From Candidatus Tectomicrobia bacterium RIFCSPLOWO2_12_FULL_69_37 (GTDB lineage Bacteria > UBA8248), in the NCBI GenBank assembly GCA_001790955.1, contig MGDP01000039.1, positions 193 to 64,192 of the forward strand: DNA of 64,000 bases, in the 5' to 3' direction. Below the pieces are notes generated by a model. It did not search any database. It saw nothing but the letters and a program-made list of their open reading frames with translations, and had not been told where the DNA came from. Within the stretch, counting starts at the first letter, position 1. Each line of letters opens with the position of its first letter. The translations under genes and the position numbers were made by a program. Shown here one piece after another: positions 1,759-54,090 of this stretch.

Positions 1759-1853
1759 GGCTCAACCGGGGGGGGAGCAGTTTTACATCCTTGGATAAAA
1801 AGGACTAGAATTTCTGAAATTGGCCGTTGTTGGTCCCCTGTATAGGTCACCTT

Positions 1854-3266
1854 ATGATTCCAGTCCTCCGCGCAGCCGTGAATACGCTCGTCCATGTCCC
1901 CGACCTCGTCCGGTACGGCTCCAAACCCTTCCGCGAGGGGTCGCGGCCCGGTTCCTTCCTGGCCGATCTCAAGGCCCGGTTGAGAACCTTCGAGGATGCG
2001 GCCGCCTACCCCCCTCACCAGGCCTTCATCGGGAACCTGCGCCCGGAGTCACTGGCCGATATTCCCTCCCCCTGGTACGGCCATCCCCTGCCGGGTGCCT
2101 CCCATCAGGGGCCGTTCGGGGAGATCCTCGGCCAGGGACCTTTTTACTCCATGCTCGAAAAGGCTGATCAGTTCGGCCTCGTCTCACTGGACGCCGGTTG
2201 GACGCCTCCCGCGAACGGCGCCTCCGCCGCGGCGAAGGGGCTCATGAGCGCCGGGGCCAGGCGCGGGACGGAGAAGGAGATCCGCCGGCGCATCGGGTCG
2301 GGGGAAGCCCTGGCCCTGGAGCACGAGGGCGCCCTCATCGGCTGCATCCGCCGCGACCACGAGGAGGACGAATCCCTGGCCGCCCGCGTCCTGCTCGAGA
2401 ACCTGGCCGCCAAGGCGAGCGGGGCGCACGCCCTCCGCCTGCTGCTGGAGAAGGCCCGCCTCCCCGCCGAGGAGGTGGACTACATCCTCAGTTGCTCCGA
2501 GGAGGCCATCGGCGACCGCTACAACCGGGGCGGCGGGAACCTCGCCAAGGCCATCGGCGAGATGGCGGGCTGCCCGAACGCAGCCGGGACGGACATCAAA
2601 GCCTTCTGCGCCGCGCCGGTCTACGCCCTCGTGCACGCGGCGGCGCTCGTCCAGGCCGGGGTGGTGCGCAACGCCGTGGTCGTGGGGGGCGGCTCCCTTG
2701 CCAAGCTCGGGATGAAGTCCCACCGCCACATCGAGAAGCGGATGCCCGTGCTGGAGGACGTGCTGGGCGGAGTGGCCTTCTGGGTCGGCCCGGACGACGG
2801 CGAGAGCCCCCGGCTGAACCTGGAGATGGCGGGCCGTCACCCCTCGGGCCGCCCCTCGACCCCCCAGGGGATGATGGAAGCCCTCGTGTGCGAGCCCCTC
2901 GCCCGCGCGGGCCGGAAACTCCGGGAGATCGACAAGTACGCCGTCGAGCTCCACAACCCCGAGGTGACCCTCCCCGCCGGGGCGGGGGACGTCCCCCTCA
3001 CGAACTACCGCACCCTGGCCGCCCTGGCCGTCATCCGCGGCGAGATCGGGCGGGAGGAGATCCCGGCCTTCATCCGCGACCACGGGATGCCCGGCTTCGC
3101 TCCCACCCAGGGCCACATCCCCGCCGGAGTCCCCTACCTGGGCCACGCCCTCGCCGCCATGCGGGCGGGCACGATGAAGAGCGCCATGGTGGTGGCCAAG
3201 GGGAGCCTCTTCCTGGGGCGGATGACCCAGCAGGCGGACGGGGCGTCGATCGTGGTGGAATCATAG
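1854..3266 (+). CDS. glycine/sarcosine/betaine reductase component C-like protein (GrdC/GrdD family, thiolase fold)
   Basis: Immediately upstream of grdA in the same orientation. Thiolase-like nucleophile elbow 'AFCAAPVYALVHAAALVQAGVVRNAVVVGGGSLAKL'. Start is ambiguous (ATG 1854 or TTG 1827). A TTTACA-18-TAGAAT promoter-like element lies at 1782..1813. Confidence 0.5.
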   Translation: MIPVLRAAVNTLVHVPDLVRYGSKPFREGSRPGSFLADLKARLRTFEDAAAYPPHQAFIGNLRPESLADIPSPWYGHPLPGASHQGPFGEILGQGPFYSMLEKADQFGLVSLDAGWTPPANGASAAAKGLMSAGARRGTEKEIRRRIGSGEALALEHEGALIGCIRRDHEEDESLAARVLLENLAAKASGAHALRLLLEKARLPAEEVDYILSCSEEAIGDRYNRGGGNLAKAIGEMAGCPNAAGTDIKAFCAAPVYALVHAAALVQAGVVRNAVVVGGGSLAKLGMKSHRHIEKRMPVLEDVLGGVAFWVGPDDGESPRLNLEMAGRHPSGRPSTPQGMMEALVCEPLARAGRKLREIDKYAVELHNPEVTLPAGAGDVPLTNYRTLAALAVIRGEIGREEIPAFIRDHGMPGFAPTQGHIPAGVPYLGHALAAMRAGTMKSAMVVAKGSLFLGRMTQQADGASIVVES

Positions 3267-3311
3267 GGGCCGGCGTTCCGGCCCGCCCGGCCTCATAAGA
3301 GGAGGTGCGAG

Positions 3312-3776
3312 ATGTTCGACGGCAAGAAGGTGATCGCCCTGGGGGAGAGGGACGGCATCCCGGGCCCTGTCCTGGCCGAGTGCCTCCAGGCGGCGGGCAC
3401 GGAAGTCGTCTACCAGACGACGGCCTGCTTCGTCTGAACCTCCGCGGGAGCCATGGACCTGGACAACCAGGCCACCATCAAGCAGCTCGTGGATGCGCAC
3501 GGGGCGGAGAACTTGGTGGTGGTGCTGGGGATGAGCGGGGAGGGCGTCCGGATCGCCGCCGAGACGCTCACCACCGGCGACCCCAGCTGGGCCGGGCCCT
3601 TGGCGGGAGTCTCGTTGGGACTCCCGGTGTACCATATCTTGGAGGAGCGGGTCCGCACGCGTCTCCCGGCTGAGATCTACGCCGAGAAGGTGCAGCTCAT
3701 GGAGATGGTGCTCGACGTGGCGCAGATCGAGGACGCGCTCGCCGGGCTGCGCAAGACCCAGGCGAAGCGGAGCTGA
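3312..3776 (+). CDS. grdA: glycine reductase complex selenoprotein A (GrdA), in-frame TGA = Sec at 3435..3437
   Basis: Strong RBS GAGGAGG before ATG 3312. Translation '[61 protein letters not shown]...' matches the canonical GrdA Sec motif CFVUTAAGAMDLENQ. The track ORF 3453..3776 is the in-frame continuation. Confidence 0.9.
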
Positions 3777-3788
3777 GGGGGATCGGCC

Positions 3789-5066
3789 ATGCGGCTCGAA
3801 ATGGGAATCTTCCCGGTCAGGAAGGTCGCCTTCGGGAGCCGGACCGGCTACCGGGACGGCTCCCTCACCGTCAACGCCCAGGAGCTCAAGGAAGTGATGA
3901 TGGCCGAGGGCGGCTTTTTGGACGTGCGCTTCGACCTCGCCCACCCGGGCGAGAGCGTGCGCATCGTCCACAACGTGGACGCTGTCGAGCCCCTCTACAA
4001 GGTGAGCGGCCGCTCGTGCGCCTTCCCGGGGTTCCTGGGGCGCGCCCTGACCGCGGGAGAGGGCCGCACCCACAAGCTCGCCGGGATGTGCATTCTCAGC
4101 ACCACCCGCTACCCCGGCCCCCAGACGGGCATCATGACCTTCCGGGACAGCATCATCGACATGAGCGGGCCCGGCGCCCTCTACTGCGCGACCTCGGAGA
4201 CGGCGAACCTCGTCGCCTGCTACGAGCCCATCCCGACCGCCTCGAACGGCGAGCACGACGCGGCCATCCGGCTCGCCACCTTGCGGGGGGCCTCCTGCCT
4301 GGCCCGGTGCACCGCGGACCTGAAACCCGAGAAGATCGAGGTGTACGAGCTCGGCGAGGTGGGCCCCACCCTGCCCCGCATCGTGTACGTGGACCAGGTG
4401 ATGCACCAGGCGGTGATGGTGGCCACCTACGTCTACGGCAAGGACCTGGACGACTCCCTCCCCACCCTCATCCACCCCAACGAGATGCTGGACGGGGCGG
4501 TAGTCGGGGCGAACTACAAGACCGGCCAGAAGGTGCCGACCTACCTCCACTGCAACAAGCCGGTCCTCCTCGAGCTCTACCGCCGCCACGGCAAGGACGT
4601 GAACTTCGCCGGGGTGATCATCACCCGTGGGCACCGCGACAACCAGGCCCTCAAGGAGCGCTCGGCCCAGTACGTGGCCAAGCTGGCCAAGCTCCTCAAG
4701 GCGGACGGCGCCGTCCTCGCCCACGAGGGGGGGGGCAATTCCTCGGTGGACTACTTCCTGACCGTCCAGGCTCTTGAGCAGGCGGGCGTCAAGGCGGTGC
4801 CCATCATGTACGAGACGGCAGACCCGGGGAGCGGGGACTTCCCCCTCGTCTACACCGTCCCCGAGGCGGACGCCATCGTGAGCAAGGGGCTCCAGGGCCA
4901 GTCGATCGTCCTCCCCGCCGTCGAGCGCGTGATCGGCTCCCCCAAGTTCAAGCCCTACGGCGGGACCCTGGTCGACACGGCTTCGAGCTTCGAGGTGACC
5001 AACGCCGACCTCTACGCCGACGAATGGGGAATGGAGCTCAGCCACTTCACCGGGAAGGACTACTGA
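3789..5066 (+). CDS. grdE: glycine/betaine reductase protein B proprotein (GrdE family)
   Basis: N-terminus MRLEMGIFPVRKVAFG... is typical of GrdE/GrdG/GrdI proproteins. About 425 aa. Placed between grdA and grdB. Confidence 0.85.
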   Translation: MRLEMGIFPVRKVAFGSRTGYRDGSLTVNAQELKEVMMAEGGFLDVRFDLAHPGESVRIVHNVDAVEPLYKVSGRSCAFPGFLGRALTAGEGRTHKLAGMCILSTTRYPGPQTGIMTFRDSIIDMSGPGALYCATSETANLVACYEPIPTASNGEHDAAIRLATLRGASCLARCTADLKPEKIEVYELGEVGPTLPRIVYVDQVMHQAVMVATYVYGKDLDDSLPTLIHPNEMLDGAVVGANYKTGQKVPTYLHCNKPVLLELYRRHGKDVNFAGVIITRGHRDNQALKERSAQYVAKLAKLLKADGAVLAHEGGGNSSVDYFLTVQALEQAGVKAVPIMYETADPGSGDFPLVYTVPEADAIVSKGLQGQSIVLPAVERVIGSPKFKPYGGTLVDTASSFEVTNADLYADEWGMELSHFTGKDY

Positions 5067-5103
5067 GGCCCAGGCGCCCCTGGGCGAGCCAGGAGAGACC
5101 GGA

Positions 5104-6432
5104 ATGCCCACGAACAAGAAGATTCGCGTCGTCCACTACGTCAACCAGTTCTTCGCGGGGGTGGGAGGGGAGGAGAAGGGGGACCATCCCCTGACCTTCA
5201 GGGAGGGCCCCGTGGGCCCCGGCCTCCTGCTCCAGCGCCTGCTGGGGGCGGAGGGGGAGGTGGCCGGCACCCTCTTCTGCGGGGACAACGCCTACGCCGC
5301 CGATCCAGGGGCCGAAGCGGCCGCCCTCGACCACATCGAGCGGCTTGCGCCCGACCTCCTCGTGGCCGGGCCCGCCTTTAACGCGGGCCGCTACGGCCTG
5401 GCCTGCGCCCGCCTCTGCCTCGCCGTGAAGGCGGGCGGCAAGACGGCGGCGGTGACGGGGATGTACCCCGAAAACCCGGGGGTCTCGGCCTGCCGCCGCC
5501 AGGTGCACATCGTCCCCACCGGGGACACCGCCGGGGGGATGGGAGAAGCCCTTCCCAAGATCGTCCGCCTGGGCCTCAAGCTCGCGCGCGGGGAGGAGCT
5601 GGGCCCGGCCCAGGAGGAGGGCTACCTGCCCCGGGGGGTCCGCTACAACGCTTTCGCCGAGGTGCCCGCCGCCCAGCGGGCGGTGGACATGGTGCTCAAG
5701 AAGGTGCGAGGGGAGCCCTTCACCTCGGAGTTCACCTTCCTGGGCTTCGACCGGGTGGCCCCGCCCGCGCCCCTCAAGGGCCTCAAGGGCAAGAAGATCG
5801 CCGTGGTCACCGAGGCGGGGATGGTGCCCCCCGGGAACCCCGACCGCATCCCCGGCTCCCGGGCCTCCACCCATCACTGGAACAAGTACTCCTTCGGGGG
5901 GCGGACGGAGCTCCCCAAGGGCTCCTTCATCTGCATCCACGGGGGCTTCAACACCGTCTTCGTGAACGAGGACCCGGACCGGATGCTCGCCCTGGACGCC
6001 CTCAAGCAGCTCGAGCGGGAGGGCGTCTTCGAGAAGCTCCACGAGGAGTTCCTGAGCACCTGCGGGAACGGCGGCCCCGTCCACGTCATGAAGCAAGTGG
6101 GCCAGGCCATGGCCAAGGAGGCCCGCGCCGCCGGGGTGGAGGGAGTGGTCCTGCCCGCCACCTGAGGGACGGGCACGCGTAGCGGCGCTACGCTGGCGAA
6201 GGAGCTGGAGAGGGAAGGCATCCCCACCGTGCTGGTCACCTGCCTCCCCGACGTGGCGAAGGACGTGGGGGCCAACCGCATCCTCAAGACGCGGGCGGGC
6301 CACTTCCATCATCCCTTCGGGGATCCGAGCCGCCCCGAGGCCTCCGAGCGGCGGTGGCGCCTCGAAGCCACCAAGAAGGCCCTGGAGGTCCTGACCGAGC
6401 CCGTGACGGAGCCCACGGTCTTCGAGTACTAG
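5104..6432 (+). CDS. grdB: glycine/betaine reductase selenoprotein B (GrdB family), in-frame TGA = Sec at 6163..6165
   Basis: N-terminus MPTNKKIRVVHYVNQFFAGVGGEE is canonical GrdB. Track ORFs 5104..6165 and 6229..6432 are in the same frame. Reading through gives '...VLPAT-U-GTGTRSGATLAKELEREGIPTVLVTCLPDVAKDVGANRIL...', matching the GrdB Sec motif (UGTCTRCGAT...). Total 442 aa. Confidence 0.9.
6177..6193 (+). promoter_or_regulatory. candidate bacterial SECIS hairpin for grdB
   Basis: 17-nt perfect hairpin gcgtagc-ggc-gctacgc beginning exactly 11 nt after the UGA. This is the spacing and size of the E. coli fdhF minimal SECIS. Confidence 0.5.
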
Positions 6433-6445
6433 CCCCCCGCAGTAG

Positions 6446-6480
6446 CAAAGGGGGCGGAGGTCCTCCTCCGCCCCTTTGCT
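6446..6480 (+). terminator. GC-rich palindrome downstream of grdB (terminator-like, no T-run)
   Basis: gcaaagggggcggagg-tcct-cctccgcccctttgc, a ~15-bp stem, directly after the grdB stop. It is followed by an AT-rich intergenic region. Confidence 0.45.
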
Positions 6481-6629
6481 CCATCCATAAGATCCGAATA
6501 AGGCAATTTAAATCAATGGGTTAAAAAACATGCCAAAAATTTCCCCTGGATCTCGAATTTCGTCTTTATTTCGTGCTATATTTCGCTTTATATTTGTCTT
6601 CGTGAAATGTCCTCACAGGAGGCTCTGCC

Positions 6630-8171
6630 ATGCTGGCCAAGACGCAGGCGGCGGCGGTTCTCGGGGTGGACGCCCACCCGGTCGAGGTCGAGGTGGACCT
6701 CGCCTCGGGCCTTCCCTACTACTCCACCGTGGGTCTGCCGGACGCCGCCGTGAAGGAAAGCAAGGACCGCATCCGGGCGGCCATCTCGAACACGGGCTTC
6801 ATCTACCCCCTCGGGCGGATCACGGTGAGCCTCTCCCCCGCCGACATGCGGAAGGAGGGGAGCGCCTTCGACCTCCCCATCGCCTTGGGGCTCCTGCGCG
6901 CGAACGGCGCCCTGAACGGGGGCGGGGAGAGGACGCGGGGGCTGATGTTCCTGGGAGAGCTGGCGCTGGACGGCGCCCTCAAGCCCGTGCGCGGGGCGCT
7001 CAACATCGCCGTTCTGGCCAAGAAGCTGGAGATCGAGGGCCTGGTGCTCCCGGCCGAGAACGCTGGAGAAGCGGCCGTAGTGGAAGGGCTCCCCGTCTAT
7101 CCCGTCCGCACCCTGCCCCAGGTGGTGGGCTTCCTGCGGGGGGAGCTCACCATCCCGCCCACGAAGGAAGACCCGGCCTCCCCGGGGAACGCCTCCGGCG
7201 CGTGCGACGACTTCCGGGACATCCGGGGCCAGCACCACGCCAAGCGCGCCCTCGAGGTGGCGGCGGCGGGGGGCCACAACCTCCTCATGATCGGCCCCCC
7301 CGGCAGCGGCAAGAGCATGCTGGCGCGCCGCCTGCCCACCATCCTCCCCCGGCTCACCCTCGAGGAGGCCATCGAGACGAGCCAAGTCTGGAGCGTCCTC
7401 GGGAAGCTCGGGCCGGGGCGCTCGCTCATGGCCGAGCGCCCCTTCCGCGCTCCTCACCACACCATCAGCGACGCCGGGATGGTTGGGGGCGGGACCGTGC
7501 CCCTGCCCGGGGAGGCTTCCCTCGCCCACAACGGGGTGCTCTTCCTGGACGAGCTGCCCGAGTTCCGCAAGAACGTCCTGGAAACCCTGCGGAGCCCGAT
7601 GGAGGAAGGGAAGATCGTCATCAGCCGGGCCCAGGCCAGCCTGGCCTTCCCCGCCCGGTTCATGCTCACGGCGGCAATGAACCCCTGCCCCTGCGGCCAC
7701 CTGGGGGACACCGCGAAGTCATGCTCCTGCACTCCGAAGCTCGTCGAGCGCCACCGCTCGCGCATCTCGGGGCCGCTCCTGGACCGCATCGACATCCACA
7801 TCGAGGTGCCGAGGCTCCCCTGGAAGGAGCTCGCCGAGGAGCCCGAGGGAGAGGGCTCAGAAGCCATCCGCGCCCGGGTCGAGGCCGCCCGCACCAAACA
7901 GCGCGCGCGCTTCACCGGCATCCCGGGCGTCCACTCCAACGCCCACATGGGGGCCGGGCTCATCGGGCGGTTCTGCAAGACGGACGCGGAAGGGAAGCGG
8001 CTCATGCAGCTCGCCGTCCAGCGGCTGGGGCTCTCGGCCCGGGCCTACCACCGGGTGCTGAAGCTGGCGAGGACGATCGCGGATTTGGCGGGAGAGGAGA
8101 GCATCACGCCAGCGCATATCGCGGAGGCGATTCAGTACCGGCAGCTGGACAGGCCGGTGGGGGGGAAGTGA
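6630..8171 (+). CDS. comM: YifB/ComM-family Mg-chelatase-like AAA+ ATPase
   Basis: RBS aggagg. N-terminal Lon-like/ChlI domain, Walker A GPPGSGKS, 'LFLDELPEF', and zinc-ribbon CPCGHLGD...CSC. Confidence 0.9.
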   Translation: MLAKTQAAAVLGVDAHPVEVEVDLASGLPYYSTVGLPDAAVKESKDRIRAAISNTGFIYPLGRITVSLSPADMRKEGSAFDLPIALGLLRANGALNGGGERTRGLMFLGELALDGALKPVRGALNIAVLAKKLEIEGLVLPAENAGEAAVVEGLPVYPVRTLPQVVGFLRGELTIPPTKEDPASPGNASGACDDFRDIRGQHHAKRALEVAAAGGHNLLMIGPPGSGKSMLARRLPTILPRLTLEEAIETSQVWSVLGKLGPGRSLMAERPFRAPHHTISDAGMVGGGTVPLPGEASLAHNGVLFLDELPEFRKNVLETLRSPMEEGKIVISRAQASLAFPARFMLTAAMNPCPCGHLGDTAKSCSCTPKLVERHRSRISGPLLDRIDIHIEVPRLPWKELAEEPEGEGSEAIRARVEAARTKQRARFTGIPGVHSNAHMGAGLIGRFCKTDAEGKRLMQLAVQRLGLSARAYHRVLKLARTIADLAGEESITPAHIAEAIQYRQLDRPVGGK

Positions 8172-8302: not shown

Positions 8303-8824
8303 TCAGAATCCCTGGATTTTCTGATACGCCCGGAGAATCTCCGCAGACTCTTCCGGCGCCATCCCCGAATCCGGCTTCTCCCTCATTCGCCGGATGATTT
8401 CCAGCCTCTCCGCCGTTCCCATCGGCGCGAGCTTCTTTAGATTGACCTCACCATGGCAACGCACGCACTTCAGCAACTCGAGAGAGGCGTGGACCCTGTC
8501 CCGCTCCTGGGCGGAAAGATGGACGTCCGGCAGCTTCTCCATCTTGGCAATGATTCCCTGCAATTCGCTGGATGTTCCGTGGACTCCCAAGAACTTGCGG
8601 TCGCTGTGACAGCTCACGCACTTCTCATCGAATACGGCGAACGGCTGGAGGGAGGCCTCACGGGCCTTTGGGTCGGTTCGTATCGCCTGGATCGCCGTCT
8701 TGACCCTGACAAGCTCGGAGCGCACCTCAAGGGTCAGCTGGGCCACGAAAACGACTACTATCGCGGTCACCAGGACCAGGAACATGGTCAGCATCTCTCT
8801 AAGCCTTGCGGTCATCTCCTTCAT
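8303..8824 (-). CDS. membrane-anchored diheme c-type cytochrome
   Basis: N-terminal TM helix (LTMFLVLVTAIVVVFVAQL). Two CxxCH motifs (CVSCH, CVRCH). Last gene of the fdh cluster. Confidence 0.75.
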   Translation of the reverse strand: MKEMTARLREMLTMFLVLVTAIVVVFVAQLTLEVRSELVRVKTAIQAIRTDPKAREASLQPFAVFDEKCVSCHSDRKFLGVHGTSSELQGIIAKMEKLPDVHLSAQERDRVHASLELLKCVRCHGEVNLKKLAPMGTAERLEIIRRMREKPDSGMAPEESAEILRAYQKIQGF

Positions 8825-8869
8825 GACAACACCCCTTTATGAGCGGTCATCTCCCTTCGGAAGCCGTCC

Positions 8870-10144
8870 TCAGGCCGGGTGAGGCGATTCGCCCTCCACA
8901 TGGATGGGCAGGTTGCGCATCGCCCACCGGAACGCGAGCAGCCCTACGGATATGATGCCGACGGTGATAAAGACCTCCGCCCAGTAGGGATAATAGGTCT
9001 CCCACGGGCGGACGATGACCCCGACCACCGCCACATTGAGGCGATTCCAGACGACGCCGGCAATCACCAGGACTGAGGTTCCGAACAGGCCGGCGCGGTT
9101 GCGAATCAACTCAGGGGTCATAAAGAGTACCAACGGGATGACCGCCCCGATGCCCATCTCCATCCACCACGAGACGGCTTGCGGGGTGAGAGCCAGCGCG
9201 TGGGGGACAGCGCCGCGTCCCACCAGGTCGGCCAGCTTCAGGAACAGGTACACCCCCAGCAGATAGGGCATGACCCTGGCCGCCGCGTGGAGCAGGTCGA
9301 GATGCGCTTTGTATCCGAGCGTTCGCTCGGTCACCAATGACTCAAAGATGACCATCGCTGGAGCGACCATCACGGCGGAGAAGAAGAAGAGCAGCGGCAG
9401 GATCGGGGTGTGCCACAAGGCGTGCAACTTGTGGGGCACGATCAAGAACAGCGACCCGAGCGAAGATTGGTGCAGCGTCGACAAGATCACCCCCGCGGCG
9501 ATCAGCAGGATGGACACCTCCGCGTGCCGCGGCATGATCCGGAGCCGAATCAGCCCCTCCCACACCAGCAGCACGGCGACCATGGCCAGCGCCCATTGGG
9601 GCGAATGGGTCATGGCCAGGGTGAACAGCCCGAGGATAAACACGATGAGCCAGGGAACCATCATCCGCCAGAGGGAATGAAGCTTCTCCAGCCGGTATCG
9701 CTCAAAGACCGACGGGAGCATCTCCAGAAACAGAACGAACGTATAGAGCATGACGCACCAGGATACTTCGAACATCGGGGACTCGTGCTGCCAATTGAAC
9801 ACCGGCTTCCAGATGTTCCAGGGGCGTCCCAGGTCGACGATCAGGCCGAAGATGAACAGGAGATACCCCAGGAAGGCCGTCAAGACGGCGGTCCGGGCCA
9901 TGACGTGGAACCTCTGCCCTCCCAGCAGATACACCGTGCCGGCCATCACGAACCCCCCGGCCGCCAGCGCGATCCCCGCGAGGATATCAAGCCCGATCCA
10001 AATGCCCCACGGGTACCCGTCGCTCAAGTTCGTCACGGCGCCGAGCCCCATCACGAACCGGTAGACGATCAGGACAAGTCCCAAGACCGCCAAAAACCAA
10101 ATCACGCTTTGCCCGGAGAGGAGATTCAGCGATTTGGCTTTCAT
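8870..10144 (-). CDS. NrfD/PsrC-family polytopic membrane subunit (quinone-interacting) of formate dehydrogenase
   Basis: 424 aa, about 10 predicted TM helices, NrfD-like composition. 4-nt overlap with the upstream FeS subunit gene. Confidence 0.8.
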   Translation of the reverse strand: MKAKSLNLLSGQSVIWFLAVLGLVLIVYRFVMGLGAVTNLSDGYPWGIWIGLDILAGIALAAGGFVMAGTVYLLGGQRFHVMARTAVLTAFLGYLLFIFGLIVDLGRPWNIWKPVFNWQHESPMFEVSWCVMLYTFVLFLEMLPSVFERYRLEKLHSLWRMMVPWLIVFILGLFTLAMTHSPQWALAMVAVLLVWEGLIRLRIMPRHAEVSILLIAAGVILSTLHQSSLGSLFLIVPHKLHALWHTPILPLLFFFSAVMVAPAMVIFESLVTERTLGYKAHLDLLHAAARVMPYLLGVYLFLKLADLVGRGAVPHALALTPQAVSWWMEMGIGAVIPLVLFMTPELIRNRAGLFGTSVLVIAGVVWNRLNVAVVGVIVRPWETYYPYWAEVFITVGIISVGLLAFRWAMRNLPIHVEGESPHPA

Positions 10145-10950
10145 GATTCACCTCCCGAGGAGGAGCCGTTCTTCTCATCGCGTCCATTTCGGATCCGCCG
10201 CTGGATGACCCACGAAACGGCCCCCAAAGCGACTGCCAGCCCGATCTTGACGTGGGGCACCACCTGCATGGCCGTCTTGGTGTACTCGCGCAGCGAAATC
10301 TTCGGGAGGTCGGTGCGGTAGCCCAGCACCTCGAACGGCACGTTGGACAGGTGAAGCACGCAGGTCCCGCCGACCTCGTCCTTCCCATAGATGTGGTGGA
10401 CGTACCCTCGCGGGTTGCGGTGGATCCGGTTCTCGGCCTCTGCGATGAGATCCTCCCGCTCGCCGAAGACGATGGCGTCCGTCGGGCAGACCTTCGCGCA
10501 GGCCGGCTCCTCCCCCGCCGCCACCCGGTCGGCGCACATGGTGCACTTGGTGATTTTGGGGATGGCCTTGTCCCACTCGAAGCGCGGGACCAGGAACGGG
10601 CAGGCAAGCTGGCAGTAGCGGCAGCCGAGACACCGATCCGGGTCGTAAACGACGGGACCCTCCTTGGTCTTCTGCAACGCGGACACAGGACATGCCGTGG
10701 CGCACGAAGGCTCAATGCAGTGGAAGCACTGAAGATGGCCGAACACCCACTCGAAGCGCCCGTTGGTCTGCGCTTCGTTGTAGGTCACGACCCGCCACGT
10801 CTTCGACGAAAGATCCCGCGGGTTTTGATACCCCTTGGGGGACGCGAAGAAGCGGGTCTTCTCGGCCGGAAGCTCGTTCCACTCCTTGCAGGCCACCTGG
10901 CAGCCCCGGCAGCCGACGCAGCGCGTCACGTCGATGAGGAGCGCTTTCAC
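10141..10950 (-). CDS. fdhB: formate dehydrogenase iron-sulfur subunit (FdnH-like, 4x[4Fe-4S], C-terminal TM anchor)
   Basis: Multiple CxxCxxCxxxCP ferredoxin motifs (CVGCRGCQVAC, CFHCIEPSCATACP, CLGCRYCQLACP, CTMCADR...CAKVCP). C-terminal hydrophobic helix. Overlaps fdhA by 4 nt. Confidence 0.85.
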   Translation of the reverse strand: MKALLIDVTRCVGCRGCQVACKEWNELPAEKTRFFASPKGYQNPRDLSSKTWRVVTYNEAQTNGRFEWVFGHLQCFHCIEPSCATACPVSALQKTKEGPVVYDPDRCLGCRYCQLACPFLVPRFEWDKAIPKITKCTMCADRVAAGEEPACAKVCPTDAIVFGEREDLIAEAENRIHRNPRGYVHHIYGKDEVGGTCVLHLSNVPFEVLGYRTDLPKISLREYTKTAMQVVPHVKIGLAVALGAVSWVIQRRIRNGRDEKNGSSSGGES

Positions 10951-13900
10951 GACGCACCTCCCTTCGCCTTATAGACGTTGCAGAGGAACGCCTTGTACTC
11001 CGGGATCATGGTGTTGGCGTCCCCCACGTGCGGCGTCAGGACGTTCGCGCTGTCGCCCTTGACGATGCCTTGGTAGCCGAAGTGCCAGATAACGCCGACC
11101 TCGTGGACGATCTTCCCGTTGTGCCGGAAGGGCTCGAAGCGGCGCGTCACCAGGGCGTAGCCGCTCATCTTGCCCCGCGCCGTCTCCAGGGTGACGCGGT
11201 CTCCGTTCTGAACGCCCTTCTGCCGGGCGAGGTCCACTCCCATCTCGACGAAGACATCCGGCACCAGCTCCGCCAGCCAGGGCAGGTTGCGCGTCATCGC
11301 CCCGGCCTGCCAGTGCTCGCTCACGCGGTAGGTCGTCCCCACGATCGGGAAGCGGTCGGCGGTCCCGACGGCGTTCATCTCGGGTGCGTCCTTGTGCCAG
11401 AGCTTGATGGCCGGGTTGACCTGCTGCCGCGACATCATGTTCGGCAGCGGGCTCTCCAAGGGCTCATAGTGCTCGGGCAGAGGCCCGTCGTTGAGGTTGC
11501 CAGCGAAGAGCCACGCGTGGCCGTCCGGCTTCATGATGAAGGGATGCTTCTCCCCCGGCGGCCACGGGCCGTCAGGCACGTCGCCCTCCCACTGTTTTTT
11601 CCCGGCGTTCCAGCGGATGACCCACCGCTTGGGGTTCCAGGGCTTGCCGGTGGGGTCGACCGAGGCGCGGTTGTAGAGGATCCGCCGGTTGACCGGCCAG
11701 CACCACGCCCAATCGGGGTAGAGGCCGATCCCGTTCATGGCGTCCCGTTTGCTCCGCCGGGCCATCTTGTTGTCCTTCTTCTCCGGGCCGGCGTAGCTGT
11801 TGCAGTAGAGCCAGTTGCCAGAGCAGGTGGAGCCGTCGTCCTGCAGCAGGGCGAAGCCGGGAACCTGCTCGCCCTTCTTGTACTGTCTGCCGCCGACGGT
11901 CTTCTCCTGGGTGAAGTAGCCGTTGATTTCCTTCGCCACCCGGTGCACGTCGGGCTCCTTGCGGACGTCGACCTCCTCGCCCGTGCCGTAGTCCCAGGCG
12001 AGGCGGGTGATGGGCTCGGGGAAGACGCCGCCCGCCGCGTACTCCTTCTTCACCGCCTTGCACAGGGCGTCCAGGATCCACAGGTCGGACCGGGAGTTCC
12101 CCACCGGATGGACCGCCGCGTAGCGCCACTGCGCCCAGCGGGCGCTGTTCGTGATGCTCCCTTCTTTCTCCACCGAAGACGCCGACGGTAGGAGGAATAT
12201 CTCGGTCTTGATGTCGGCGGGCTTCACGCCCGGGCGCTTCCAGATCGATGCCGTCTCCGTCTCCCAGAGATCGACGGCCACCATCCAATCGAGCTTCTCC
12301 AGCGCCTTGATCTCCTTGTTCGTGTTCGGCCCGCCGACCGCCGGGTTCTGACCGAAGAGCATGAGACCCTTGATCTGGCCTGCATACATCGCCTCGAACA
12401 GCGATATCCACGAGTAGTCGCCGCTGCGCTTGGGGATGTAGCTGAACGCGAAGTCGTTCTCCCGAGCGGCGTGGCCGCCGTACCAGGCTTTGAGCAGCGA
12501 GACGATGTACTTCGGATAGTTACCCCACCAGTTGGCCGATTTCGGGTCGTTCGTCCTGGGTGTGTTGCTCGCCAGGTAGGCCGCGAGCGATTGGTCGGCG
12601 GCGGTGGGCGAGGCCAGGTAGCCCGGCAGGATGTGGAAGAGCAGGGCCATGTCGGTGGAGCCCTGCACGTTGGACTCGCCCCGGAGGGCGTTCACCCCCC
12701 CGCCCGCCAAGCCGACGTTGCCCAGGAGGAGCTGGAGGATCGCGTAGGTCCGGATGTTCTGGGTCCCGTGCGTGTGCTGGGTCGCCCCCATGGCGTAAAG
12801 CCAGGTGCCCACGCGGTCGGGCGCCCAGGTCGAGGTGTAATGGCGGCAGACCTGGAGATAGACATCCCGCGGCGCGCCGGTGATGTTGCACACCGTGTCC
12901 ACGTCATAGCGCTGAAAATGTTTCTTCAACAGCTGGAACGCGCAGCGGGGGTGTTGGAGGGTCATGTCCCGCACCGGCATGCCTTTCCCATCGAGCTCGT
13001 ACGCCCAGTGGGACTTGTCGTAGCTGCGAGACGCCGGGTTGTAGCCCGTGAACAGGCCGTCATCGAATCCGTACTTTTCAGAGATGATGAACGAGGCATT
13101 CGTGTAGTTGAGGACGTAGTCCTTCTGGACGAAATCGTTCTGGAGAGCATAGTTGATCATCCCGCCCACGAAAGCGATGTCGGTGCCGCTACGGAACTTG
13201 CAGTAGACGTCGGCGAAGGAAGAGGTACGGGTGTAGCGCGGATCCGCACTGACGACGATGGCCCCCTTCTCTTTCGCGCGTGTTATCCATTTCGTGGCGA
13301 TGGGATGGTTCTCCGCCGCGTTCGAGCCCATGATCATGATCACGTCGGCGTGGACCATGTCGCTCCAGTGATTGGTCATCGCGCCCCGCCCGAAGGTCGC
13401 CGCCAAACTGGCGACGGTGGAGCTGTGTCATATCCGCGCCTGGTGCTCCAGGTAGGCGACCCCCAGCGCCCGGGCGAGCTTCGAGTAGAGGTAGCACTCC
13501 TCGTTGTCCAGCGCCGCGCCGCCGAGGCACGCGATGCCCTCGGTTCGGTTCACGGTCCTGCCCCCCTCCTCGCGGCGGAAGGTGGCGTCGCGGGTGCGCT
13601 TGATGCGCTTGGCGATCTCCGGGACGGCCCACTCCCAGGTCTTCTCCTCCCAGCGGCTACCCCCCGGGGCCCGGTAGAGGACGCTCCGCAGGCGCCGCTC
13701 GTTCACCGCCACCTGATAGAGGGCCATGCCCTTGGAGCAGAGCGAGCCTTCGTTGATGGGGTGATCGGGGTCGCCTTCGATGCTGACCACCTTCCCGTCC
13801 CTGGCAGAGACGATGAGCCCGCACCCCACCCCGCAGTACGGGCATATGGTCGTCGACTGCTTGGTGCGAACCGTCTTCATCGGGGGTGTTTGGGCGGCGT

Positions 13901-13994
13901 GGGCCCTCCCTTTTTGAGGGCCGAAAAGAGAGACGGCCGTCCCCAGTGCGCTTCCGCCCGTTGCCCCCAAAAAGGTACGCCGCGAAATCTTCAT
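10947..13994 (-). CDS. fdhA: formate dehydrogenase catalytic subunit (FdnG/FdoG-like, molybdopterin, TAT-exported), in-frame TGA = Sec at 13428..13430
   Basis: TAT signal MKISRRTFLGATGG. Fe-S cluster motif CPYCGVGCG. Track ORFs 13428..13994 and 10947..13406 are in frame, separated by TGA plus 7 codons. Read-through gives '...YLEHQARI-U-HSSTVASLAATFGRGAMTNHWSDM...', almost identical to E. coli FdnG 'NQARVUHGPTVASLAPTFGRGAMTNHW'. Total 1015 aa, the same length as FdnG. Confidence 0.9.
13396..13415 (-). promoter_or_regulatory. candidate SECIS hairpin for fdhA
   Basis: Minus-strand mRNA has stem gucgcc / ggcgac with a GU-containing loop, starting about 12 nt after the UGA. Confidence 0.4.
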
Positions 13995-14098
13995 CGCCCT
14001 CCCCTCCAGTCACGATTCACCTGGCACCGTCTTCGCTTGCAGCGATTCATCCTCACCTGCGTCATCCGCGCCCCAGGCCCGTGCGCCTCCTTTCCCCC

Positions 14099-14965
14099 TC
14101 AGGGGTCCACCGAAGCGGCCGCGAGGAGCGGATGCGGGGCAAATCCGGCGCTCGCCGCGAGGAGGTCGAGCGCGCGGGTCCCCAAGTAGAACACATCAAA
14201 GGAAAATGCTTCGGCCGATAAGGCGGACATGACCTCCTTGATGTATTTCCCGCAGCGGGCGCAGGTGTGCGCGCGGAAGGACGGCTCGGCCTCTGCGCTG
14301 ATCAAATTAAGCGCTTCCTGGTCCTCGTTGAGGCAATAAGGGCACTGAAGTCGGCCGTAGGGCCAGTGCGTCCCGCAGAGCAGGCACCACAGCGTCCGGC
14401 GGCCCTCCACCGACTGGATGTGCGCCAAGGCCGGCCAATTCCCGCACACCGGGCAATGGCCCCGGTGCCACTTCCCCAGGTCCACCTCCCGGGTCAGCTC
14501 CAGGGCCGCCTGCGCGCGGAATGGACGCGCCAGGTAGACCGCAATGAAAGTGAGCAAACCTTCATCCACGCCCAGTCTCTTCGCTGCCCCGAGAATCTCC
14601 TCAGACCGACCACGGAACACAAGCGAGACGAAATCTTTCGGCGGGATTTCCCCCGCCGCGAATGCCCCTTGGATCCGTCCGAGGGCGTCCTCGCGGTCAG
14701 GCAGACGCTTTCTCAGCAGGTCCAGCAAGACCGATGCAACTTCTTTGCAAGCTTTGGGAGCGAATCGATATTCTGAGGCGCGAAGAACAGAGCGTCCGCT
14801 TTCCAGAAAACCGGCGATTGAATCGGGAAATTCCTGAGGAGGCTGGGATTCAAACAGGGAGGCGCTGCGGAATTCCTGAAGAAAATTTCCTATTTCCGCA
14901 TGAATCGGTGGGAAGGCGGAAAGGCCTTTCTCGAGGGAAGAATCGTTGCGCGGTGGGGCTTTCAT
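14099..14965 (-). CDS. fdhE: formate dehydrogenase accessory protein FdhE
   Basis: C-terminal motifs 'WHRGHCPVCGNWP', 'LWCLLCGTHW', 'CPYC', 'CARCGKY' match FdhE. The track ORF extends to 15343 but would overlap fdhD. Start placed at the internal Met (MKAPPRND...). Confidence 0.7.
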   Translation of the reverse strand: MKAPPRNDSSLEKGLSAFPPIHAEIGNFLQEFRSASLFESQPPQEFPDSIAGFLESGRSVLRASEYRFAPKACKEVASVLLDLLRKRLPDREDALGRIQGAFAAGEIPPKDFVSLVFRGRSEEILGAAKRLGVDEGLLTFIAVYLARPFRAQAALELTREVDLGKWHRGHCPVCGNWPALAHIQSVEGRRTLWCLLCGTHWPYGRLQCPYCLNEDQEALNLISAEAEPSFRAHTCARCGKYIKEVMSALSAEAFSFDVFYLGTRALDLLAASAGFAPHPLLAAASVDP

Positions 14966-15203
14966 GGGCTCTGCCCCCTTCGGGAGGGGCCGGCTCCCTG
15001 AAAACCGCCAAAACCACCCTTGGGAGGAGCAATTTCCTTGCCACGCAGCCCAGCCATGTCCCCCAAGAAAGCGAGCCGCTGCCCGTGGTAAATACCCCAC
15101 GCTCCTGCAACCCGCGCGGGAAGATGAGACAAAAAATCCCTTCCCCGGGACTGAATGCCACATCTCCTTCGACCCCGGGACGAGCGAATTTCTGGTTCTC
15201 TCC

Positions 15204-16061
15204 TTACCGGACGCTCCTCTCCTTGGTACAACCAAAATTAAGGGATGAGGCGTCCGAGCATGCCCAGGCGGTTTTCCCTTCCCAGCACGAACCCGTGCCG
15301 GAGGCGAGACCCTCGGGGTGGGCGTAGACAGTAAATTGGTCATGTGTCACATAGCCGATGAGGGTGATCCCTAGGCGCTTCGCCAAGTCGATCGACAAGC
15401 TGGTCGGCGAGGTCCGGGAAATCACGAAGGGAACCTTCATCTGCGCCGCTTTCCGGAGCATTTCTGAAGAAATGCGCCCGCTGCTCGCCAGGATATGCTC
15501 GCGCGGATCAATTCCCCTCACGAGCACTTCCCCGCGGAGCTTGTCCAGGGTGTTGTGACGACCGATATCCTCTGCCACCGCGATCAGCCCTTCTCCGTCG
15601 AAGAGCGCCGCCGCGTGGATTCCGCGAGATTGGTGGTAGAGTTCGGCCGCTTCGATCAGCTGATGCATCAGCGACGGCACCGCATCCGGGTTTAGGACGC
15701 CTTCGGCGCGGATGGGAGCATAATCCCGAACATCCAGGTGGAACGTCACTCCGCCGGCGCAGCCCGAGGTCAAAATCCGCGGCCTCGATGACGGGAGAGG
15801 CCGATTCAGCTCGACATGGGCCTCGAATTCATTCTCGTCCACCTCAAGGCTCTTCACATCGCCAAGCGAATCAATGACCCGCTCGAAGGCAAGAAAGCCC
15901 AGAGCCAGCTCCCGGAGCTTCAGCGGGGTGCACATCAACGTCGCAAGCTCCTTGTTCTCCACCAAAATGCGGAAGGCGATTTCGCGCACCACGGGAATCT
16001 TGGCGGGTGAGAAAACTCCATTCGCATAGCGGTAGATAGTAAAGTCCATGTTGCCATCCAT
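15204..16061 (-). CDS. fdhD: formate dehydrogenase accessory sulfurtransferase FdhD
   Basis: Motifs 'SGCAGG', 'EDIGRHNTLDKLRG', 'ITLIGYV...FTVYAHPEGL' align with E. coli FdhD (EDVGRHVALDKL, LTLVGF, ATVYTHPQRL). Start chosen at MDGNMDF. Confidence 0.75.
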   Translation of the reverse strand: MDGNMDFTIYRYANGVFSPAKIPVVREIAFRILVENKELATLMCTPLKLRELALGFLAFERVIDSLGDVKSLEVDENEFEAHVELNRPLPSSRPRILTSGCAGGVTFHLDVRDYAPIRAEGVLNPDAVPSLMHQLIEAAELYHQSRGIHAAALFDGEGLIAVAEDIGRHNTLDKLRGEVLVRGIDPREHILASSGRISSEMLRKAAQMKVPFVISRTSPTSLSIDLAKRLGITLIGYVTHDQFTVYAHPEGLASGTGSCWEGKTAWACSDASSLNFGCTKERSVR

Positions 16062-16468
16062 CAATCGCTGCGGGCTTGCCAAGTCGTCCTTTCCGCAAGC
16101 CGCCAGAGAACTTCCCTCCACTCCATCACAGCCTTGTCATGCAAGTTTGCTGCCACGCGCTCCCCCATCGCTCATGAAGAACCAATCACCGAAACCCGGC
16201 TTTCCCCCGATCTCCTCTTTCCGGCCCAGCGATCGTGCAAACCACATCTTGAATCCTCCCTTGCGACAGCTCCCTTCCCGCCTCGCCAGGTCCACCTCCA
16301 GCTGCCGGGCCGCCTCTTTTCTGGGCGGGGCCCAGCTTCACCGGCACGTCTTGAGCAGTGCGCCGGGCGTCCGGGGCTTGTCCTCCAAAGCGTGTGTCCA
16401 AGGAGCTGGATTATTTTTGGAGCAGACGGGAAGCCCGAAGAGGGGAAGCCTCTAGAACCCCCCCCCGC

Positions 16469-17486: not shown

Positions 17487-19037
17487 CTATCGAACTTTCT
17501 TCGCCTCGATATCCGCCTTCGTGCCCAGCCCCAGCGTGTACTCGAAGGAGACGTGGTGGCGGCGGGTGGTTACGTGATCGTCGTGGATAGCGAAGGCGAT
17601 GGGATAGGTCTCCCCGTCCTTCAGGATCACGTCATCCTCGGGATGGCCCGTGTCGAGCTTGCGCTTGAGGATGAGGGTATATTTGCCCATCTTCTCGCCG
17701 GCCTTCCTCAAGAAGACCCCGTAGGCCTGGATGTCGCCCCGGCTCCCGTCCGGCGCCCGGAGGACGCGCTGGTAGAGGATGTCTCCCTCCTTGGGCTTGT
17801 AGACCTTGGGATCATAGGGAACCGCATTCTTGCCCAGGGTCGTGAGGAAGGCGATGGTCTCCTGGTCCTTGATCACCGGCAGGGGGTTCTTCCCGCCCTG
17901 GATGGCATACTCGCCCCCGCCCAGCCGGCCGGAGGGAACCGCCTGGGGATTGAACATGAAGCCCTTGGGGGGGGTCGCGTTCAGGTCCGCGGGCCGCTGC
18001 ATCTGCCAGAGGCCCTTCCCCCTGTCGCCGTTCCGGTAATCGAAGATCCACATGTCGTCGGCGTAGCCGATGTGGCCTGCGCGCGCGGCCCGCCACATCC
18101 ACATGTCGAGGAACTGGCCCTTCTTCCGCATCCCGGCCAGCTCTTCCTTGCCCTTGAGGAGCGACCAGCGCCCCTCGGCCTCGGTCGCGCCCTTCTTCTC
18201 CTTGGGGTCGCCCGCCTGGGCCGCGTTGCGGGTGGCGAGGAGGTACTTCCGGATGTCGCTCTGCTTCGGGAAGACCGATTTCACGCCCTTGTTGTTGAGC
18301 GCGTCGTAGGGCATGTCCCGCATGCTGTTGTGGCAGGTGATGAAGCAGCCGGCCGACTGGAAGCCGGCGGGGGTGCCCGCGTCCGCCGGGACGTGGCCGG
18401 GGGCGCCCTGCTTGTAGCCGAGGAGGAAGGTGAGCCGGTCCTCATAGAGCCCGGGGGACTTATCGGGCTTGAACCCGCCGTAGCCCACCCACTTCTTGCC
18501 GTCGAAGCGCATCGCGTTGTGGTAGGCGCCGGGCTCCTCGCTCTCCCACTGGAGCCAGAAGTACATGTTCTGGGCGTCGTAGGCGGCCTTGACGGCGAGG
18601 TCGACGGTGGGGCGCTTGCCGGGGATCGGCTTGTCCTCGGCGGGCCCCTTGGGGACGAGCTTCTTGCCGAGCGCCTCTTCGTCCGGCCCCGCTCCTCCCG
18701 TCACATGGCAGGTGCGGCAGGCGACGCCCGTCTTGACCACCGGCCCGCCCAGATGCGTAAAGTCCTTCTGGGGGTTCACCAGGCGATCCCAGGAGGCTTG
18801 GCCGGGGTAGAAGAGACGGATGCTCCTCGCCGGGATACCTTCCCATTTCACGGGGACATCCTTAGGCTGAAACGTCGGGATCTCCGGCTTGACCTCACTT
18901 CTCGCGGCCGCCCAGGATGGAGCCGCACCTAGCAGAAGGACCGCCGTACTCACGAGGGCAAGCACGAAAGAGGCCAGGCCCCGACCCAGGCGCTGTTCAG
19001 CAACAGGTCCAGCATCTCGATGAAAAAATGCCATCAT
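17487..19037 (-). CDS. diheme c-type cytochrome fused to an EB_dh/DOMON-like heme-binding domain
   Basis: Signal peptide. CRTCH and CFITCH motifs. C-terminal ~200 aa resemble the ethylbenzene-dehydrogenase gamma-subunit-like (EB_dh) fold. Confidence 0.55.
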   Translation of the reverse strand: MMAFFHRDAGPVAEQRLGRGLASFVLALVSTAVLLLGAAPSWAAARSEVKPEIPTFQPKDVPVKWEGIPARSIRLFYPGQASWDRLVNPQKDFTHLGGPVVKTGVACRTCHVTGGAGPDEEALGKKLVPKGPAEDKPIPGKRPTVDLAVKAAYDAQNMYFWLQWESEEPGAYHNAMRFDGKKWVGYGGFKPDKSPGLYEDRLTFLLGYKQGAPGHVPADAGTPAGFQSAGCFITCHNSMRDMPYDALNNKGVKSVFPKQSDIRKYLLATRNAAQAGDPKEKKGATEAEGRWSLLKGKEELAGMRKKGQFLDMWMWRAARAGHIGYADDMWIFDYRNGDRGKGLWQMQRPADLNATPPKGFMFNPQAVPSGRLGGGEYAIQGGKNPLPVIKDQETIAFLTTLGKNAVPYDPKVYKPKEGDILYQRVLRAPDGSRGDIQAYGVFLRKAGEKMGKYTLILKRKLDTGHPEDDVILKDGETYPIAFAIHDDHVTTRRHHVSFEYTLGLGTKADIEAKKVR

Positions 19038-19096
19038 GTGCTACCTCCTTTTTCTTGGGACGGCCCAAAACCGCCCCCGAGAACCCGGCGGATGCC

Positions 19097-20356: not shown

Positions 20357-20388
20357 CCGCCGCCAAGAATTTCCGCGCACCGCAGACC

Positions 20389-23595: not shown

Positions 23596-23642
23596 GGGAC
23601 TTCAGCCGGATTCATTTGGGGACGCCCCAGCCGTAAGGAGAC

Positions 23643-45556: not shown

Positions 45557-45605
45557 AGCGGTTCCCGCCGGTCGGCCCGGGCTCCCCTTCCCGGGCGCTG
45601 AAGGC

Positions 45606-47465: not shown

Positions 47466-47505
47466 CCCTTCCCCCGATGACGATTGGCAGTCTGGGCCCT
47501 TGCAG

Positions 47506-48489: not shown

Positions 48490-48582
48490 CGTTTCCCTCC
48501 TTTCCCATGATTGGCCCGCCCCGCCCGGAGGATCCCACTCCCTCCCCGGCGGGACGGCGCGCAGGCTGCAAAATCCCCTGCT

Positions 48583-49497: not shown

Positions 49498-49535
49498 GAC
49501 GCGATCCTCCCCGCCGCCCTTGAGCCGCCGCCCGC

Positions 49536-54081: not shown

Positions 54082-54090
54082 GGAAACCCC

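Follow-up and report, generated by a model that had tools for sequence, protein, structure and literature searches.

A four-gene Grd cluster in a Tectomicrobia genome

We analysed a 64,000-nucleotide stretch of DNA (hereafter the window) from Candidatus Tectomicrobia bacterium RIFCSPLOWO2_12_FULL_69_37, contig MGDP01000039.1, which carries four genes related to those of glycine reductase (Grd). An earlier reading made from the letters alone (the sequence-only reading) had proposed a Grd-family operon with two selenoproteins at this place, and four co-directional open reading frames (ORFs), matches to hidden Markov models (HMMs), and in-frame UGAs confirm it. We write grdE′ and grdB′, or E′ and B′, for the grdE-like and grdB-like genes and their products. 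The features of the cluster are as follows.

1782..1811, + strand: candidate sigma-70-like promoter, TTTACA-18-TAGAAT, in the AT-rich gap between htrA and grdC; consensus match, 10/12
1854..3266, + strand: grdC, protein C beta subunit, 470 aa from ATG (NF040746, PF19364, ACP_syn_III)
3312..3776, + strand: grdA, selenoprotein A, 154 aa, with the motif C39-F-V-U42 and its UGA at 3435-3437 (NF040748, PF04723)
3789..5066, + strand: grdE′, grdE-like protein B subunit, 425 aa, with N242-Y243 and the Tyr codon at 4515-4517 (PF09338)
5104..6432, + strand: grdB′, grdB-like selenoprotein B, 442 aa, with selenocysteine (Sec) 354 and its UGA at 6163-6165 (PF07355, TIGR01918)
6177..6193, + strand: selenocysteine insertion sequence (SECIS) hairpin of grdB′, 7-bp stem and GGC loop (minimum free energy and centroid structures, covariation)
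6442..6482, + strand: long GC-rich inverted repeat, candidate terminator without a U-tract, 10 nt past the grdB′ stop; perfect hairpin in the cmscan alignment

The gaps along grdC-grdA-grdE′-grdB′ measure 45, 12, and 37 nt, and GC content at third codon positions is 0.91–0.96 in the four intact ORFs, a strong coding bias. The promoter-like element, also picked out by the sequence-only reading, is the sole sigma-70-like match in the 5.2 kb between 1500 and 6700, where shuffled sequences predict 0.3. A simple terminator scan left the inverted repeat at 6442-6482 uncalled because a T run is absent. Between this hairpin and yifB (6630-8171) lies an AT-rich stretch (6485-6625; the window averages ~67% GC) that may be a promoter or regulatory region.

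The same locus is found in several Rifle-aquifer assemblies and in GenBank metagenome-assembled genomes (MAGs) named Candidatus Tectomicrobia bacterium, in which the Grd proteins are labelled “hypothetical protein.” Its closest relatives are Nitrospinota, and the C-A-E′-B′ block is present in about 10 Nitrospinota/Tectomicrobia species, with GrdC identities of 57–86%. Across loci whose E subunit carries the same Asn-Tyr pair as E′ (N-Y-type loci), the four grd genes are the only conserved genes. The literature searched held no paper pairing Nitrospin* with “glycine reductase” or mentioning Grd genes in Nitrospinota. Four Nitrospinota loci (L008, L020, L021, and L022) have a ~2-kb insertion between grdE′ and grdB′, annotated in L008 as a weakly N6_N4 methylase-like ORF plus a hypothetical ORF.

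Selenocysteine decoding and a covarying SECIS hairpin

Both in-frame UGAs, at 3435-3437 for GrdA Sec42 and at 6163-6165 for B′ Sec354, match the Sec position in known GrdA and GrdB proteins and are conserved across the related loci recovered, that of grdA wherever the motif was readable. Because folding-energy z-scores downstream of the UGAs were non-significant in this GC-rich sequence, we used covariation. The 17-nt hairpin that the sequence-only reading placed 11 nt past the grdB′ UGA is indeed there, at 6177-6193. Its pairing is 100% in 10 distinct relatives, with double-sided changes in 2/7 stem pairs (GC/AU/UA and CG/UA/UG); the covariation score was reached by 1/500 shuffles, and every slid register scored lower. 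A sub-threshold Rfam SECIS_4 match falls in the same place (6166-6203, 21.7 bits, E = 0.62). grdB′ thus carries a real bacterial SECIS, a stem-loop about 11 nt past the UGA with covariation support. For grdA, a stem-loop after the UGA is predicted by structure prediction only, and an Rfam search downstream of that UGA returned no SECIS match.

A genuine GrdC without GrdD

The single component-C protein is a true GrdC rather than an unrelated member of the thiolase/KAS families, scoring 589 bits against the cut-off of 450 for the NCBIfam GrdC equivalog NF040746; GrdA likewise passes NF040748 (204 bits, cut-off 130). That only one component-C gene is present had been seen from the letters, and the length given then, 479 aa, counts from an upstream TTG, compared with 470 aa from the ATG at 1854. 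The fold is thiolase/KAS III-like, with Cys252 invariant, and its structural relatives are HMG-CoA synthase, KAS III/FabH, OleA, and type III polyketide synthases. GrdC differs from these thiolase-superfamily enzymes in an extra ~170-residue N-terminal region, in a C-terminal DUF5940 region, and in its acyl donor, a protein-bound Se-carboxymethyl group; binding of coenzyme A (CoA) is hypothetical. Residues 219-227 (about 2508-2534) form a nearly invariant G-D-R-Y-N-R-G-G-G loop and are the sole stretch of the GrdC AlphaFold model with a predicted local distance difference test (pLDDT) score below 50, which suggests a mobile functional loop.

GrdD, thioredoxin, and thioredoxin reductase are absent from the whole 64 kb by Pfam scans of all plausible ORFs, with which the gene calls agree. 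Searches by tblastn with Enterococcus GrdD, thioredoxin (Trx), and thioredoxin reductase (TrxB) gave zero matches in the window, as did a profile HMM built from 26 GrdD sequences when run against its six-frame segments. Nor does a grdCD pair lie just outside: a sister contig reaching 1.4 kb further upstream adds only Ysc84 and a hypothetical gene, and GrdD, thioredoxin, and thioredoxin reductase are absent there as well. After the KGSLF motif the window GrdC has a tail of 22 aa and lacks the ~35-aa C-terminal tail of GrdCs linked to GrdD.

GrdC loci fall into two classes

We scanned a GrdC alignment against one genome per GTDB species and kept the best 80 loci. With reference loci from PLSDB (Enterococcus gilvus, Acetoanaerobium noterae, Photobacterium, and Peptoclostridium acidaminophilum grdG and grdF) and two earlier relatives, 85 loci were classified, the window excluded; flanks were searched up to 10 kb on each side, less on short contigs. 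Class I comprises 27/85 loci, in which the GrdC tail runs at least 54 aa past KGSLF and GrdD is adjacent, either 7–148 nt downstream of grdC or fused to it (L092 and L093). The remaining 58/85 form class II: the tail is 22–36 aa where measurable, GrdD is found in none of them within the searched flanks, and grdA comes next after grdC in 52/58, usually less than 80 nt away. The GrdD HMM matches 27/27 class I loci and 0/58 class II loci, and TrxB/Trx lie upstream in nearly all class I loci with sufficient flank, compared with a minority of class II loci. The reference clusters illustrate class I: the order is trxB-trx-grdA-grdC-grdD-grdI-grdH-BCCT in E. gilvus and trxB-trxA-grdE-grdA-grdB-grdC-grdD in A. 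noterae.

Eight GrdC positions discriminate class I from class II (T24K, N223Y, R249K, N288K, T323L, M366L, Q367H, and G448A), Cys252 being invariant across both; the 219-227 loop holds one of them, the class II-specific Tyr223. The window belongs to class II by every feature, with its 22-aa tail, grdA 45 nt on, and K24, Y223, K249, K288, L323, L366, H367, and A448 all present. In a large protein collection, the 120 closest GrdC homologues have class II length save for two artefacts, one truncated and the other P0334; the latter was considered as a GrdC-GrdA fusion and rejected as a frameshifted read-through.

Class I is mostly Clostridia, with Treponema, Calditrichales, Photobacterium, and Enterococcus. 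Class II spans Nitrospinota, Tectomicrobia, Syntrophobacterales, other Desulfobacterota, Chloroflexota, Binatia, Acidimicrobiia, Acetothermia, Armatimonadota, Methylomirabilales, and Dehalococcoidia; among the nearest GrdC loci 56/80, from at least 10 phylum-level groups, lack GrdD. The sequence-only reading had called the composition of the cluster atypical. The order of grdC before grdA and the absence of trxAB are as it described, but neither is an oddity in class II, and the composition as a whole proves to be a systematic trait of a large non-clostridial Grd class. We found no paper discussing GrdD-less systems in the literature searched; Desulfovibrio desulfuricans G11 has both C subunits.

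The class II modules of Desulforhabdus sp. TSK and Syntrophobacterales MAGs (L026, L028, and L033) bear on what the missing gene means. They share with the window a short-tail GrdC (53–55% identical to that of the window) followed by grdA, and GrdD is absent from their flanks. They differ in having a fully canonical, glycine-type protein B (SGN-C-VSACDK and U-GTCTRC) that passes the published GrdB motif, and in the gene order E-B-C-A; related class II loci have a thioredoxin gene before grdC. Since class II is also coupled to canonical protein B, the missing GrdD is a trait of the whole Grd class, independent of substrate type. Clustering of the ORFs around class II loci gave no conserved neighbour able to replace GrdD or to hint at substrate; the recurrent families, each confined to subsets of the loci, are ABC ATPases, thioredoxins, macro-domain proteins, and SDRs.

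Several further observations concern the make-up of GrdC loci. A single ORF of 845–857 aa covers both GrdC and GrdD in L092 (Syntrophomonas sp. UBA1376) and in L093 (Terrisporobacter sp.); a sequencing frameshift is possible, and the fusions fit a contact between the long tail of class I GrdC and GrdD. In other phyla, class II modules go with at least five more E/B motif types (GHHTIRSLD/U-GSSTRC, GPYRSPFAM/U-GTCNRC, SGVYVYGCY/U-GTGTRC, SGNYEMPPC/U-GTGTRC, and SPLPALNVQ/U-GTSTRC; loci L036, L041, L051, L042-L045, L053, L048, L052, L087, L038, and L067), which suggests that one A/C module is served by a family of substrate-specific B components. Ten loci have GrdC-GrdA and no E or B gene within the flanks (L027, L032, L037, L046, L049, L054, L057, L058, L063, and L070). 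These include Binatia, with the GrdA variant ...UTAAGAMNFE; the neighbours in L054 are a macro-domain protein, an NMT1 binding protein, a HAD hydrolase, and a pyridine-nucleotide disulfide oxidoreductase.

Protein B departs from the glycine, sarcosine, and betaine types

Family membership of the two protein B subunits is clear. E′ matches PF09338 at 378 bits, B′ matches PF07355 at 397 bits, and at 422 bits against a cut-off of 65 B′ lies within the broad TIGR01918 subfamily, with Sec at the conserved position. The pair is nonetheless not the canonical one that the sequence-only reading took it for. We compared the E′ site with P. acidaminophilum GrdG and A. noterae GrdE and GrdI: it reads GAN-Y-KTGQK, against SGN-C-VSACDK in GrdE, SGN-C-VAPCDK in GrdG, and SGS-F-MPCSSK in GrdI, so that Tyr243 replaces the Cys that forms the pyruvoyl group and the second conserved Cys is lost too. 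The claim of textbook Sec motifs stands for GrdA (C39-F-V-U42) and fails for B′, whose A-T-U-G-T-G-T-R-S, set against S-T-U-G-T-C-T-R-C of GrdB, GrdF, and GrdH, has both Cys of U-x-x-C-x-x-C replaced. Class-specific residues of B′ are E237, R253, G324, A352, G357, S360, L368, and F401. Two E-subunit Cys are required for autoprocessing to the pyruvoyl form and are lacking in GrdI and FarE, and the CxxC after Sec protects Sec and is missing in FarB (PMC10838667).

Curated models place the pair outside each characterised type. B′ scores 399 bits against GrdB (TIGR01917, cut-off 602), 438 against GrdF (NF040794, cut-off 800), and 371 against GrdH (NF040795, cut-off 775); E′ scores 273 against GrdG (NF040793, cut-off 780) and 145 against FarE (NF053623, cut-off 675). 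B′ also fails the published GrdB motif (AHGGxD..RV[IL]PxD..TxGNxTxV) and GrdF motif (IHGGYDR..TTGTGT; PMC9751293), reading IHGGFNT and TCGNGGPV, and the controls (A. noterae GrdB, P. acidaminophilum GrdF, and Desulforhabdus GrdB) behaved as expected. Nobu et al. deliberately filtered out GrdB homologues without the motif (PMC9751293), so such sequences are known to the field but uncharacterised.

The sequence-only reading had proposed a protein B phylogeny against the known types. We ran it on the E subunit: in a neighbour-joining tree the N-Y-type E subunits form their own clade, outside that of GrdE, GrdG, and GrdI. Besides the window protein, this clade takes in sequences from about 10 Nitrospinota/Tectomicrobia species, from a Burkholderiales MAG, and from Desulfobaccales; a VY/NY group of Chloroflexota is sister to it. 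Conservation of N242 and Y243 is 90% or higher across 42 relatives. The E family comprises 265 clusters at 50% identity (E ≤ 1e-30), and among the 150 nearest cluster representatives N-C occurs in 6 and N-Y in 24, with a different residue followed by Tyr/Phe in many others; Tyr dominates the former Cys position across the family. The AlphaFold2 model of E′ is confident (pLDDT 91) and has no counterpart among solved structures; E′ is predicted to be an uncleaved single chain. Sequence searches of the PDB with E′ and B′ gave zero matches at E up to 1. Cys255, in a conserved H-C-N 12 residues downstream, was considered as an alternative processing site and dropped, the residue being Thr/Gln/Leu in related Tyr-type sequences.

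Some loci with Tyr-type protein B stand apart in gene content. In a Burkholderiales MAG (GCA_020854035.1, L010), and likewise for P0382, an N-Y-type E′/B′ selenoprotein pair sits beside a TctC binding protein with no GrdA/GrdC nearby; the same MAG has a class II GrdC on a separate contig and a second E′ paralogue (P0077). Ardenticatenaceae GCA_027493995.1 (L009) has an E of the Tyr type (SGN-Y-VYACF) and a B with Sec (U-GTGTRC), with a flavin amine oxidase gene between them; next come genes for an NMT1-type ABC transporter and for hydantoinase A/B, and GrdA/GrdC are absent within 10 kb.

Substrate class and alternative readings

We interpret the locus as a four-gene, Grd-type reductase with two selenoproteins, of the GrdD-independent class, with a non-glycine protein B, in the Tectomicrobia/Nitrospinota lineage (probability roughly 0.6). 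We agree with the sequence-only reading that the substrate is not readable from the sequence. Its most likely class would be an alpha-substituted acetate other than glycine or sarcosine, reduced without Schiff-base chemistry. E′ lacks a Cys-derived pyruvoyl group, so that a Schiff base would be impossible; judged from the sequence, glycine and sarcosine are therefore not plausible substrates, and orthology with betaine reductase is not supported.

Comparison with glycine reductase itself (P. acidaminophilum and Acetoanaerobium sticklandii, with A. noterae L015 as reference) brings out both kinship and distance. Shared are the C-x-x-U of GrdA, the invariant Cys of GrdC, the PF09338/PF07355 protein B pair, Sec at the homologous position, and the operon organisation. 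In contrast, the window has no GrdD, no ~35-aa GrdC tail, and no adjacent trxB/trxA; E′ has Tyr for the pyruvoyl-forming Cys, and B′ has ATU for STU and has lost the CxxC. The window thus fails four hallmarks of glycine reductase (pyruvoyl precursor, GrdB motif and cut-off, CxxC, and GrdD), and it passes none of the tests for sarcosine, betaine, or fluoroacetate reductase either. It is accordingly improbable that the locus encodes a standard glycine or sarcosine reductase with grdD and trxAB at another genomic site. Such an enzyme would fit GrdA and GrdC being bona fide by curated HMM cut-offs and the existence of GrdD-less modules with canonical GrdE/GrdB (Desulforhabdus and Syntrophobacterales), and our GrdD search covered the window and the flanks of the loci; but it leaves unexplained the Tyr243 replacement with loss of the second Cys, the failure of B′ on the GrdB/GrdF motifs and cut-offs, the separate E′ clade, and a GrdC without the tail that accompanies GrdD in 27/27 loci.

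Betaine reductase offers a closer parallel at the E site. GrdI also lacks N-C, has Phe there (SGS-F), and is reported to be unprocessed (PMC10838667), so the locus could encode a GrdHI-like reductase of betaine or of another quaternary ammonium or sulfonium acetate, with the aromatic residue placed on the onium group; a similar cation-pi contact would be possible for Tyr. The E. gilvus betaine cluster (pCR1A, L014; the A. noterae counterpart is L013) likewise has grdA and grdC upstream of the protein B genes. Yet GrdI has S-F where the window has N-Y, E′ falls outside the GrdI clade, B′ reaches less than half the GrdH cut-off, and GrdH retains the CxxC that B′ has lost. The E. gilvus cluster also has grdD, trxB, trx, and a BCCT transporter, whereas no BCCT/OpuA transporter lies near the window cluster, distant binding proteins are SsuA/TAXI-like, and no trimethylamine-related genes were seen in the window. 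We consider an onium reductase unlikely, though it deserves to be kept in view.

FarE/FarB, the fluoroacetate reductase of Cloacibacillus porcorum MFA1, provide a precedent for Grd-type action on non-amine X-CH2-COO- substrates, and an analogous haloacetate reductive dehalogenase is a further reading: FarE lacks the processing Cys and FarB the CxxC (PMC10838667; NF053623), a pair of losses shared with the window. FarE is, moreover, the second-best NCBIfam match of E′. That match is nevertheless weaker than the GrdG match, and the canonical GrdE of Desulforhabdus scores higher on the FarE model (169 bits), which implies family-level similarity only. Radical SAM or other Far-cluster genes are not nearby, and the Synergistota FarE/FarB, unlike the window proteins, work with a GrdA, GrdC, and GrdD that they share with a canonical system. 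A dehalogenase therefore seems a long shot.

The strong conservation of Asn-Tyr at the former Asn-Cys, with Tyr dominant family-wide, raises a further idea, that of an amine (glycine-type) reductase in which a quinone carbonyl derived from Tyr243 replaces the pyruvoyl group. Topaquinone precursors lie in an N-Y-D/E motif, and many carriers of the N-Y type are aerobes or microaerophiles. The proposal is pure analogy, though: no copper site or maturation gene was identified, the N-Y type is also seen in Desulfobaccales (L011 and L065), anaerobes in which a quinone is unlikely to be made by an O2-dependent route, and B′ fails the glycine/sarcosine motifs as well. We give it very little weight.

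The reading that we regard as least credible is that the locus is decaying, or that its selenoproteins serve some function other than reduction, for example as a thiol peroxidase. Peroxidase activity of GrdB is reported in a title cited in PMC3091704, and the Burkholderiales MAG has E′B′ pairs without nearby GrdA/GrdC. Against this stand four intact ORFs with strong coding bias, a block kept in about 10 species, a covarying SECIS, and the retention of Cys252, Sec42, and Sec354.

A proposed reaction without GrdD

Under the reading we favour, a GrdD-independent reductase with a non-glycine protein B, an alpha-substituted acetate (X-CH2-COO-) would bind the uncleaved E′/B′ pair with no Schiff base formed. 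Tyr243, at the position of the missing carbonyl, might act as a general acid or as an aromatic contact for the leaving group. By homology with glycine reductase, whose mechanism is summarised in PMC9908766 and PMC10838667, B′ Sec354 would displace X to give Se-carboxymethyl-B′ and the carboxymethyl group would move to GrdA Sec42; with GrdC present, GrdA Cys39 would attack the selenium, yielding acetyl-S-Cys252 on GrdC and the Se-S form of GrdA. Re-reduction of GrdA would fall to the housekeeping thioredoxin system. Because GrdD, which produces acetyl phosphate, is absent and GrdC lacks the GrdD-associated tail, the acetyl group presumably needs another exit. CoA is the most plausible acceptor, as the GrdC fold is that of acyl-CoA-using enzymes; phosphorolysis by GrdC, hydrolysis, or an unlinked GrdD are alternatives.

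Several points weigh against this reading. The GrdD-less class and the Tyr-type protein B are known from sequence alone, and GrdD may lie elsewhere in the genomes, the search having covered the window and up to 10 kb on each side per relative. The reductant is assumed, no thioredoxin system lying in the window, and the acetyl-CoA proposal draws on the fold and the absence of GrdD only. The Tyr243 loop is modelled at lower confidence in E′ (pLDDT ~72), and the neighbouring genes offer no clue to substrate.

Two generalisations can be joined into a broader proposal: that most non-clostridial Grd systems are GrdD-free, with GrdC alone discharging the acetyl group, most plausibly as acetyl-CoA, and that the Tyr-type, CxxC-less protein B coupled to this module in Tectomicrobia/Nitrospinota reductively cleaves a C-X bond other than those of glycine, sarcosine, and betaine. 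We hold the two together only tentatively, at somewhat worse than even odds. If both were true, they would amount to a selenium-dependent metabolism that has gone unrecognised in these lineages, which are known chiefly for aerobic nitrite oxidisers and their relatives.

Metabolic reconstructions usually take a grd cluster as a source of acetyl phosphate and so of ATP via acetate kinase, an assumption that covers the reductive glycine pathway and both Stickland-type and lithotrophic glycine reduction. Should the GrdD-less class make no acetyl phosphate, energy and carbon balances would have to be revised. Most PF09338/PF07355 sequence space is not the canonical pyruvoyl enzyme, and since N-C occurs in just 6/150 of the nearest representatives and Tyr is dominant, automated “glycine/sarcosine/betaine reductase” labels probably misname many of these proteins. 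Together they are a pool of selenoenzymes awaiting substrates, with fluoroacetate reductase as the sole precedent, and the window supplies a compact, intact four-gene example.

Other features of the window

The far-end binding protein that the sequence-only reading assigned to a quaternary amine (betaine/choline) transporter is instead of the SsuA/NMT1 type, sulfonate/taurine-like (SsuA_fam 115 bits, OpuAC 27 bits), and lies more than 50 kb from the grd cluster; a look-up of this protein returned no record.

A second selenoprotein system adjoins the grd region on the - strand (8303-16121), a molybdopterin oxidoreductase of the formate-dehydrogenase type. Its catalytic subunit is split by an in-frame UGA into an N-terminal part (13431-13994) and a main part (10950-13406), and Rfam SECIS_3 matches at 13375-13433 (40.5 bits, E = 2e-6). 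Alongside it, the operon has genes for a 4Fe-4S subunit (10144-10950) and an NrfD membrane subunit (8873-10144), as well as for a small protein with CxxCH (8306-8824) and for FdhD (15207-16121).

Further along, the genes of 17490-25832 resemble a set for respiration and extracellular electron transfer. They comprise c-type cytochromes, a protein with an EB_dh haem domain, and cytochrome b with a Rieske protein; a multihaem cytochrome is encoded at 22501-23592 and an outer-membrane porin of the MtrB/PioB type at 23643-25832. Finally, 44783-62809 carries several SsuA/NMT1- and TAXI-type binding proteins, ABC and TRAP transporter components, two thiamine pyrophosphate enzymes, a BKACE enzyme, a creatinase/M24-like peptidase, acyl-CoA dehydrogenases, and a GntR regulator. 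The region, by its distance unrelated to the grd cluster, has the look of an island for the catabolism of small organic acids or sulfonates.

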